Source: Bacteroidales bacterium
Lineage (GTDB): Bacteria > Bacteroidota > Bacteroidia > Bacteroidales > UBA7960
Reading direction: 5' to 3'
Assembly: GCA_046291875.1 (NCBI GenBank)
Contig: JBKBSF010000014.1
Coordinates: 4,569 to 68,568, forward strand
DNA: 64,000 nt
Part shown: piece after piece, positions 746-3,662 of the stretch
Position numbering within the stretch: position 1 is the stretch's first letter
Layout: the number at the start of each line of letters is the position of its first letter
The notes under the pieces: model-generated
Databases searched by the model: none
Told to the model about the DNA's origin: nothing
Seen by the model: the letters and a program-made list of their open reading frames with translations, nothing else
Position numbers and translations under genes: made by a program

Positions 746-1143
746 AATCTGTTGTCTTTAGTTTGGGTTTGTAATGGGTTTGATTTTTTTTCTGATCAAA
801 ATTAACCATAAATTCCGGTTGGTTGCAGCCGTGGTACAACACAATGCACACCAGGGGAAACAAAAGAAAATATGCTTATCCGCAATCTTGCCAGTAATTA
901 CCTTGCTGTCAGTTTTCCCAATCGTAATAGATTTCGTTTGAGAAGTTTTTCTTTCTTCAACTTTTTCCTTGATGAAAAAGTTGCAAAAAATCAAGGCTTC
1001 GCAGCTTTTTCGACAAAACTGCGGTCTCTTCGCTGAAAGATTTAAGGCCCCGCAATAAATCAAATACCCTGGACCAAATTTTAATGCAGTGCGGGTCTGC
1101 AAATCTTTTTAACCGCTTCGTTCATTGTTTTGTTACCGAAAAA

Positions 1144-1250
1144 TCTGCAAGGCCGTTTGAATATAATGCCAACCAAGCAAGACATACCAGGCAAAACATT
1201 TTACATAAATGCAAAAGCCTTAGTGACAAGAAAGCGGATAATCATTAAAC
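1144..1250 (+). repeat. Left arm of a ~100-bp imperfect inverted repeat (partner on the opposite strand at 2431-2531)
   Basis: The 57-nt core ctgcaaggccgtttgaatataatgccaaccaagcaagacataccaggcaaaacattt matches the reverse complement of 2475-2531 at about 50/57 positions. A second conserved block, tagtgacaagaaagcggata, matches tagtggcaagaatgcggata on the other arm. Confidence 0.75.
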
Positions 1251-1332
1251 AAAATTTTCCTTGTGCGGGGCTACCGGGATGCTTAAAATTTAGTAGATTT
1301 GCATTTGAACGACCAAAAACACACTTCAGGCT

Positions 1333-1893
1333 TTGGCTTCGTGCTTTTGGTTGTGTTTTTTTCAAAAGATCGATATACAACAGGGAAATGCATTTTTTGC
1401 CCATATTGTTCAACCCATTATGGAATTTACACACAACTTTCTTACTCCCCGCCGCAAATCGCCCATGCTGATAGTGATGGGTGCCATCCTGGTAGCTACT
1501 ACCCTTTACATTCAAATTTTTGAGTCGTTCCTCGACAGCATCGGTTTGGCCGTTACCAACCTTGCCATTGGCTTCAACCTGCTGGCCCGGGGCATAGGCC
1601 ATCCCCTGGAGGCATTGGCAGGGCGGCAGTATATCGCGGTAAACAGCCAATCTATTGAGCTGAAGCCCAAATTGCTGAAAAAGGCCAACCGGTTCCTATG
1701 GTCCGACATAGCGCAGCTGGAGCTGTGGCCCGGCCTTGTTGTGGTATCTACCCAACAGGGAAAAACCTTCAAGAAGCAGATCAGGGATCTGGATCCTGAA
1801 GTGCGCCACGAGTTTCTTATGACCCTTATACACCAGGCAGAAGACAAACAGATCCCGTGCCTGCGGCATGGCTATCTCACCAAGATGCGTTGA
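1333..1893 (+). CDS. Hypothetical membrane protein (one predicted TM segment, MLIVMGAILVATTLYIQIF); start uncertain (1333, or internal ATGs near 1420 or 1468)
   Basis: ORF-track 186-aa ORF lying between the two inverted-repeat arms; I see no recognisable family motif. Confidence 0.45.
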   Translation: MASCFWLCFFQKIDIQQGNAFFAHIVQPIMEFTHNFLTPRRKSPMLIVMGAILVATTLYIQIFESFLDSIGLAVTNLAIGFNLLARGIGHPLEALAGRQYIAVNSQSIELKPKLLKKANRFLWSDIAQLELWPGLVVVSTQQGKTFKKQIRDLDPEVRHEFLMTLIHQAEDKQIPCLRHGYLTKMR

Positions 1894-2015
1894 ACCCTTC
1901 ACGGTTTCAGATGTTAGTCTTGTGCCGGTGTTACAGTTGTATACAGGCAGAGGATCGGGCCGCAGGGCCGTAGTCCGCTGTCCGGCATTATTTACTCATC
2001 TTAAAAACCTGAACC

Positions 2016-2162
2016 ATGGCTAAGACAAAAGAACTTCTGGGACTTATAGTAGGATTTGCAGCCGGTACCTTTCTGGGTGCCCTTTTTGTAGCTGCCGACC
2101 GCTCCGACAAAAAGAAAAAGAAAAAAGAAGAACAGCCCGAAAAAGTCATTACGGTGAAATAA
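2016..2162 (+). CDS. Small (48 aa) single-TM protein with a Lys-rich tail (MAKTKELLGLIVGFAAGTFLGALFVAADRSDKKKKKKEEQPEKVITVK); below the ORF-track size cutoff
   Basis: ATG...TAA ORF read directly from the sequence; hydrophobic core followed by a K6 tract; it lies inside the IR-bounded segment. Confidence 0.35.
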   Translation: MAKTKELLGLIVGFAAGTFLGALFVAADRSDKKKKKKEEQPEKVITVK

Positions 2163-2430
2163 CCCCCGTGATCCTCCTTATTGCTTTTAGGATGATGCGC
2201 CCTCCTGCCGGTTACCCAACCCAATCCCTGTCTGGCAGTGGGATAACAGGGTATCGCTGCTTTTGCGGTGAACCGTCATGATGCTGTACAGGGAAGCCAG
2301 GATATGCCTGTGTGCTACTATCTGCATTTCCCGTTGACCCTCCCCGCCTTGCGGGCACCCCTCCCTGGGAGGGAGGGAAAGGGTGCAACCTTAAAGGATG
2401 GTAGTTGATTGCGGAACGGAAGAAAAACTT

Positions 2431-2531
2431 AATATAAATATCCGCATTCTTGCCACTATGGCAATTCCTTAGGAAAAATGTTTTGCCAGGTATGTCTCGC
2501 ATGGTTAGCTTTATATTCACTCGGCCTTGCA
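2431..2531 (-). repeat. Right arm of the ~100-bp imperfect inverted repeat (partner at 1144-1250)
   Basis: The reverse complement reads ctgcaaggccgagtgaatataaagctaaccatgcgagacatacctggcaaaacattt...tagtggcaagaatgcggata, i.e. about 80-88% identical to the left arm. Confidence 0.75.
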
Positions 2532-2751
2532 GAACCGAGGCCCTTTTCGGGGCCGAGCTCAATGTGACAAATAAAATAAAATAGATACACATTAAAAAAT
2601 TGACTTAAAGGCAATTACTGGCAGGATTGCAGGTAATGATTATACATAATTAAGGATCAATGCAAGTCTGGTTGAAACCCCAAAACGCCCTGAAAGGGCA
2701 GATTATAACAACACCATCCATCCCAAACCTAACCTAATTCCCCATTGCACC

Positions 2752-3564: not shown

Positions 3565-3662
3565 TCCTTCCCGGGCCCCTGCTTTCGCGGTGCAACGGCA
3601 AAACAACATTTTGTTCAAATATTATTGGCTTATGTGCGTGGAATTATCTATTTTAGGCCGCC

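Follow-up and report, generated by a model that had tools for sequence, protein, structure and literature searches.

A facing pair of repeat arms in Bacteroidales DNA probably stems from two separate insertions of a strain-polymorphic miniature inverted-repeat transposable element

In a 64,000-nucleotide stretch of Bacteroidales DNA (contig JBKBSF010000014.1, positions 4,569 to 68,568; the window), two repeat arms of about 100 bp face each other between a gene for an Ldh_2 dehydrogenase and pgeF. We conclude that this inverted repeat very probably represents the homologous L-ends of two separate insertions of a transposable element of the miniature inverted-repeat type (MITE), lying in opposite orientation around native genes. 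The MITE family is previously undescribed and unannotated, and it belongs to a well-known kind of element. It has inverted repeats at its termini (TIRs) together with duplications of the target site (TSDs), lacks coding capacity, occupies five insertion sites and is present or absent among near-identical strains. In the following, L002 to L021 are labels of related contigs or loci, and coordinates given without such a label are window positions.

Two repeat units in the window

An earlier note on this DNA, made from the sequence alone, had described an inward-facing inverted repeat of about 100 bp bounding a 1.4-kb segment. The repeat itself was confirmed by three approaches. A repeat search of the window paired 1144–1208 with 2469–2533 without gaps (65 nt, 86% complementary), gapped blastn within the window aligned 1144–1262 on the plus strand with 2533–2420 on the minus strand (78% over 119 columns, E 1.7e-20), and a MAFFT alignment of both arms gave a mean column identity of 82%. 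The latter included the second block that the note had pointed out, TAGTG(A/G)CAAGAA(A/T)GCGGATA, which corresponds to the L-end TIR of the left-hand element, copy 1. The longest exact run common to both arms is 13 nt. The 22-nt arm core AGACATACCWGGCAAAACATTT occurs twice in the 64 kb, both times in the arms, with 0 occurrences expected from 100 shuffles.

Further repeats were found outward of the arms. Positions 876–916 pair with 2596–2636 (80%, E 3.8e-4), an inverted repeat search paired 872–897 with 1220–1245, and the 22-nt terminal motif ATGAWTATCCGCWWTCYTGCCA is present exactly four times in the window (0.03 expected), at 872–893(+), 1224–1245(−), 2434–2455(+) and 2619–2640(−). The outward repeats and the four terminal motifs therefore define two repeat units with inverted termini of their own, 872–1245 and 2434–2640. 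The borders at 1143/1144 and 2531/2532, which had been taken for the ends of an element, both fall inside these units.

Copy 1 is a full-length element of 374 bp (872–1245), on the minus strand relative to the family alignment A2 with its L-end first. The family hidden Markov model matches it end to end (E 2.5e-126), and it is 89% identical over its whole length to a copy that occupies another site in L003 (5759–6133). Pattern search located its R-end TIR, ATGCTTATCCGCAATCTTGCCA, at 872–893 on the plus strand with one mismatch to the TIR consensus, and its L-end TIR, ATGATTATCCGCTTTCTTGTCA, at 1224–1245 on the minus strand, the latter also being covered by the pairing of the termini given above. 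The L-end module (1144–1245, minus strand) is the left arm of the earlier note, as seen by repeat search, MAFFT, blastn and the family alignment; the core (948–1154, minus strand) comprises a long imperfect hairpin and a second hairpin according to alignment and folding. On either side lie putative TSD remnants, AAAAGAAAAT (862–871) and TAAACAAAAT (1246–1255), which match at 8/10 positions, a match that counts for little by itself given the A-rich target.

Copy 2 (2434–2640) lies on the plus strand, opposite to copy 1, and is internally deleted to 207 bp, with hidden Markov model matches of E 7.7e-31 and 2.5e-6. Relative to the L003 copy, its L-end (2434–2533) is 91% and its R-end (2597–2640) 80% identical. 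The L-end TIR, ATAAATATCCGCATTCTTGCCA, was found by pattern search at 2434–2455 on the plus strand; the R-end TIR, ATCATTACCTGCAATCCTGCCA (2619–2640, minus strand), is decayed, with three mismatches, and lies in the stretch that pairs with 876–916. The L-end module (2434–2533, plus strand) is the right arm of the inverted repeat on the same four lines of evidence as the left one. In place of the core, copy 2 carries a hairpin module, AACCGAGGCCCTTTTCGGGGCCGAGCTCAATGTGAC...CATTA (2534–2595, plus strand), which occurs as a direct repeat in a 477-bp variant of L005. Its TSD is degenerate (AAAACTTAAT/TATACATAAT, 7/10) and lies in A/T-rich DNA. For both window copies, mobility is thus argued from the TIRs and the strain comparison below and not from clean TSDs.

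Copy 1 is placed between the divergent Ldh_2 gene and an open reading frame (ORF) of 157 codons, ORF157, and copy 2 between a 48-codon frame, ORF48, and pgeF. Since the copies are in opposite orientation, it so happens that the L-ends point towards one another, with 1.19 kb of native DNA between them.

Insertion polymorphism among related strains

An exact protein look-up of ORF48 returned 19 contigs, from several metagenomes, that encode the identical protein. The comparison of strains for presence or absence, which the earlier note had proposed as a check, showed that the arms vary between related strains and that the enclosed block is constant. In L004, L006, L009 and L010, which are 94–98% identical to the window, blastn and alignments revealed Ldh_2, ORF157, ORF48 and pgeF in the same order with neither copy; there, window 822–1276 is represented by about 70 bp and 2421–2706 by about 120 bp of unrelated short spacer. 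Copy 1 is missing at the window site from these four and from L003, and is present in L005/L013 (98% identical), where copy 2 is missing. Copy 2 is missing from L003 to L010, including L005 and L008 (97–99% identical). The block between the copies (1277–2420, plus strand) is colinear and 94–98% identical in every related strain, with or without MITEs, as is expected of native chromosomal DNA and not of cargo. As the copies vary independently and the block is constant, the 1.4-kb segment is not the unit that came or went: the block is in place in strains that lack both arms and in one strain that has the left arm only. The suggestion of a non-autonomous, transposase-less mobile element was therefore correct as to the kind of element and mistaken as to the unit, which is two MITEs of about 0.2–0.4 kb and not one element of 1.4 kb.

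The same comparison bears on the possibility that the two MITEs bound a composite transposon, which would move by way of the outer TIRs at 872 and 2640 with ORF157 and ORF48 as cargo. MITE-bounded composite transposons are known as TIME-COMPs (PMC13367494), and in Acinetobacter johnsonii an integron is flanked by two 439-bp MITEs (PMC3934969). The geometry of the window, in which two copies bracket genes, is shared with these documented structures and allows such a unit, the inverted copies having R-type TIRs at their outer edges. In contrast to these systems, the bracketed genes of the window are resident: their chromosomal position is unchanged where both copies are missing and, in L005, where only copy 1 is present, and the divergence of both ORFs keeps pace with that of the core genes around them. 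The bracketed DNA is thus not absent where the copies are, nor do the copies co-occur. Furthermore, no single TSD surrounds the pair: 862–871 and 2641–2650 match at 6/10 positions, below the pair belonging to each copy and no better than the A/T-rich background. We consider a composite transposon extremely improbable.

A second possibility is an invertible, phase-variable segment, in which the arms serve as recombination sites and the 1.2-kb block flips; the earlier note had thought of sites for an invertase encoded elsewhere. Invertible promoter and shufflon regions of Bacteroidota likewise have inverted repeats around a short segment. Their repeats are short, near-identical and conserved in relatives, and work together with an invertase, whereas the arms in the window are about 100 bp long, only 78–86% identical with no exact run beyond the 13 nt mentioned, and missing in close relatives. 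All assembled contigs that join the block to a flank show it in one and the same orientation, so that the proposal found no support. What could speak for inversion is that short-read contigs of SRR31360865 that are 100% identical to the window (L011, L002) break near the arm borders, at 1148, 2535 and 2551, one contig of 1404 bp covering exactly 1148–2551. These positions coincide, however, with the borders of MITE modules, which is where a dispersed repeat would be expected to break contigs. The contig ends fit a dispersed repeat that tangles the assembly graph, a pattern that may be mistaken for an invertible or excisable segment. On the assembled contigs, inversion of the block is thus extremely improbable, and the separate insertion of two MITEs is the reading that we retain.

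A third site, in the intergenic DNA between pgeF and an OPT transporter gene, is available in both its filled and its empty state. It contains the same element in L003, L005, L007, L017 and L020, and is empty, with one 10-mer, in the window and in L002, L004, L006, L008, L018, L019 and L021. The empty target site of the window is ACAACATTTT (3603–3612), a single 10-mer that is MITE-occupied in other strains. The empty arrangement reads ...GGCAAA ACAACATTTT GTTCAAA and the filled one ...GGCAAA ACAACATTTT [ATGAATATCCGC...CGGATAATCAT] ACAACATTTT GTTCAAA, which gives a perfect 10-bp TSD verified against the empty site. Further copies were obtained by translating the open frames of the element and searching a protein database for the resulting spurious ORFs. 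A 376-bp copy at an unrelated locus in L015 (9230–9605) has a perfect 10-bp TSD, AAAAACTAGT, and a copy at another unrelated locus, in L014 (9803–10177), has decayed ends. Five TIR-bearing insertion sites are known in total, three of which are polymorphic among strains with 94–100% identical flanks.

Anatomy of the family

To describe the family we used the MITE criteria as listed in PMC4596501. The copies measure 374, 207, 375, 376, 375 and 477 bp, within the range of 50–1000 bp. The 22-nt motif is present at both ends of every copy, with 0–1 mismatches in young copies and three at decayed ends; it forms part of imperfect TIRs of about 22–30 bp with the form ATGAWTATCCGC..TCYTGCCA, and the two copies with perfect TSDs, in L003 and L015, have identical 22-nt TIRs. 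The TSD is established at the third site, and dispersed copies and insertion polymorphism were described above. No frame is both open and conserved across the copies in six-frame translation, the longest stop-free stretch being 90 aa, and the database "homologues" of element frames are only spurious ORFs on other copies. All copies are intergenic, between called genes, and the G+C content of copy regions is 36–42% compared with 50–62% in neighbouring genes. Folding of a full copy gives a long stem-loop (z −4.0). According to alignment A2, the full element of about 375 bp is composed of an L-end of about 100 bp including the TIR, a core of about 210 bp and an R-end of about 70 bp including the TIR.

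Some variants additionally carry nested hairpin modules. The 477-bp variant in L005 (2372–2848), also found in L017, has two of them in direct orientation with the core between them. The modules are 55–60 bp long and consist of AACCGAG, a short GC hairpin and CGAGCTCAATG...CATTA; they are located at 2534–2595 in the window and at 2472–2531 and 2690–2745 in L005. Their hairpins differ in sequence and both pair, GGCCC with GGGCC in one case and CCC with GGG in the other. In about 194 kb, all modules that were found lie within MITE copies. The insertion site of the L005 allele is also that of the module-free L003 allele, and their ends are identical; modules were therefore gained or lost after insertion, or converted from another copy. 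A deletion between the two direct-repeat modules of the 477-bp variant would yield the arrangement of copy 2 of the window, which looks to have arisen in this way, most simply by recombination or slippage between the modules.

The conserved core hairpin

Two hairpins make up the core, an imperfect one of about 160 nt whose apical loop is variable and, after it, one of 10 bp. In copy 1 the long hairpin extends from 995 to 1154 with its apical loop at about 1054–1089, and the stem of the second hairpin is made up of 958–967 and 974–983 (10 bp). Among four full copies, identity is 97.9–98.6% in the core without its loop, 73–91% in the L-ends and 66–93% in the R-ends, and the divergence of the apical loop is about equal to that of the ends as judged by eye in the A3 alignment. 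The folding z-score of the core is −4.1. A locus from another metagenome, L016 (10242–10492), is homologous in the core only, with unrelated flanks; it is 70–73% identical overall with long identical stretches, and RNAalifold indicates that the same fold is kept by means of nine compensatory pairs. Because the termini are identical in the copies with perfect TSDs and the core stems are conserved, constraint on the element appears to fall on these two parts.

This conservation suggests a function, which may be cis-acting in transposition or exerted at the RNA or DNA level. Most likely, the central hairpin is a structural module that the element requires in cis or that is selected for another reason; alternatively, the compensatory pattern could arise if the two halves of a palindromic transposon co-vary. 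A more specific proposal is that the core (948–1154) is a functional structured module, either an RNA or a protein-bound DNA palindrome, that experiences strong purifying selection, persists with compensatory changes across Bacteroidota lineages and owes its spread to the MITE shell. We regard this as possible and put it forward tentatively. If true, examples of what the core could be include a cis-acting enhancer of transposition, a kind that has not been described for bacterial MITEs, and a portable bidirectional terminator or regulatory RNA.

One may go further and take the hairpin of about 210 nt for the real functional unit, such as a structured RNA gene, a terminator or a palindrome to which a protein binds, with the TIR shell as a mere vehicle or context. 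The 98–99% identity of the core stems, set against 66–92% in shell and loop, points in this direction, as does the core-only homology of L016 with its compensatory pairs. At five of six sites, however, core and shell move together as a single unit flanked by a TSD, the loss or disruption of the core has not kept copy 2 and the L005 allele from persisting, and co-variation between the halves would also be expected of transposon ends that co-evolve with a transposase. We find this reading unlikely; it is compatible with the MITE explanation and not exclusive of it.

Transposition and the search for a transposase

Judging from how the TIRs and TSDs are built, the element would be moved in trans by a DDE-type transposase whose gene lies elsewhere in the genome. 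This enzyme would bind both TIRs, cut the target with a 10-bp stagger and join the element ends to it, and gap repair would then generate the 10-bp TSD, insertion taking place in A/T-rich intergenic DNA. An assignment to an insertion sequence (IS) family from the 10-bp TSD and the ATG...CAT terminus alone was considered and dropped as unsafe.

Regular-expression and nhmmer searches of about 0.3 Mb of related loci yielded no further copies. The plasmid and phage collections (blastn, distant mode) and the viral contigs (three scans) contained no match to the element. In the species-representative genomes, searched for the exact 22-mer only, a single match was found in a coding region of a Sulfurimonadaceae metagenome-assembled genome; it has no flanking similarity and was rejected as a chance match. 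A 26-base degenerate L-end pattern retrieved only one contig from metagenome contigs, and this one was already among the related loci.

Native genes and neighbouring DNA

Constant position and purifying selection indicate that ORF157 and ORF48 are resident genes and not cargo. ORF157 (1420–1893, plus strand) encodes a conserved hypothetical protein with an N-terminal hydrophobic segment. The earlier note had rightly listed a 48-aa ORF and GC-rich hairpins in the enclosed DNA, and had given the larger ORF 186 aa from a TTG at 1333; in all related contigs the protein has 157 aa and starts at the ATG at 1420. Its codons differ between strains at 4–5 synonymous and 0–4 non-synonymous positions. 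The family, small and unannotated and with proteins of about 150–160 aa, comprises 28 cluster representatives matched over their full length at E ≤ 1e-3 and down to about 25% identity, and ORF157 gave no Pfam or NCBIfam match. ORF48 (2016–2162, plus strand) encodes a small transmembrane, Lys-rich protein, identical on the 19 contigs mentioned, with 1–3 synonymous and 0 non-synonymous codon differences between strains.

The left arm lies upstream of ORF157 and the element is highly structured, which would suit another proposal of the earlier note, that the arms are paralogous cis-regulatory or leader-RNA elements, that is promoters or small-RNA genes driving inward transcripts. Against this, the arms are dispensable in close relatives that keep both ORFs, and a conserved box of the Bacteroidota type, TAnnTTTG, is located outside the arm in native DNA at 1293–1300. 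No sigma-70-like or Bacteroidota-type box is evident by eye in the arms themselves, and a scan for sigma-70 promoters and terminators showed no enrichment over shuffles. The right arm has no downstream ORF on its strand save antisense noise. The search of Rfam that had been proposed for the arms gave no match at the gathering threshold in the 64 kb and nothing relevant even at E ≤ 10 in 700–2800, where the best sub-threshold matches had E 2.7–8.7. A regulatory role of this kind is therefore very unlikely, and the arms are better described as the L-ends of two MITEs. The arms were also considered as coding sequence and rejected, the substitutions between them not being biased towards synonymous changes in any frame (by eye); a 126-aa ORF that spans the right arm has no Pfam match.

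Several features of the native DNA were observed in addition. The TAnnTTTG sequence is a conserved −7 box, 48 bp downstream of copy 1, and reads TAGATTTG in the window and TACATTTG in relatives. Only in the window and L005 is it followed, upstream of the ORF157 start, by a hairpin with a T-run (at about 1311–1372); the other strains have a different leader. The 122-bp spacer between ORF157 and ORF48 (1894–2015) contains a GC-rich hairpin and is 100% identical to L004, compared with 98% in the adjacent coding sequence and 89–93% in the other non-coding DNA of the block; judged from this identity, it may be a constrained non-coding element. GC-rich nested hairpins at 2335–2390 (CCCGCCTTGCGGG; CCCTCCC..GGGAGGG; GCACCC..GGGTGC) belong to the native block, with about 93% identity in relatives, and no T-run comes after them. 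The DNA upstream of pgeF is hypervariable between strains (window 2641–2706, L004 4650–4775, L005 1342–1459) between flanks that are 97–99% identical, and its GC hairpins are exchanged, GCCCTGAAAGGGC in the window corresponding to GTTCC(A/G)(G/T)AGGAAC and ATCCCGTAGGGAT in relatives. The host belongs to the Bacteroidota, as indicated by a type IX secretion system sorting domain in the window, by a match there to the SusC/RagA receptor model, which is weak and partial, and by SusC/D/E neighbours in L014.

Discussion

Among bacterial MITEs, the Correia elements of Neisseria are comparable to the family described here. With BrickBuilt, MITE239 and MITE464/PgRS of Porphyromonas gingivalis (PMC4596501) and MITEAba12 of Acinetobacter (PMC6382973) it shares the small size of 0.2–0.5 kb, the non-coding, A/T-rich and intergenic character, the TIRs, a TSD, the occurrence in several copies, insertion polymorphism between strains and the long stem-loop. 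It differs from known MITEs in having no sequence similarity in Rfam or in the plasmid and phage collections, and in its variants with nested 55–60-bp hairpin modules. The TSD of 10 bp also differs from those of the P. gingivalis IS elements, for which 2–9 bp are reported (PMC4596501).

Several observations weigh against the MITE explanation. The TSDs of the window copies are degenerate, at 8/10 in copy 1 and 7/10 in copy 2, and lie in A/T-rich DNA. To the left of copy 2, colinearity with relatives is lost through the replacement of about 55 bp. The known TIR-bearing insertion sites number only five, and searches of the window and of about 0.3 Mb of related loci with regular expressions and nhmmer revealed neither a transposase nor an autonomous element with matching TIRs. 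Finally, conservation of the centre of the element far exceeds that of the subterminal DNA, an unusual pattern for a MITE.

The analysis corrects the tempting misreading of a transposon that carries two membrane-protein genes; its apparent geometry is the by-product of two unrelated insertions. The core, far better conserved than the ends, is the only part of wider interest and, if functional, would provide a small testable case of a structured module spread by transposition. For the organism, the results mean that an uncultured Bacteroidota population harbours a MITE family with present or recent activity. The insertions differ between strains and lie near promoters, in the intergenic DNA upstream of ORF157, Ldh_2 and pgeF; changed expression and broken short-read assemblies could be the consequence.

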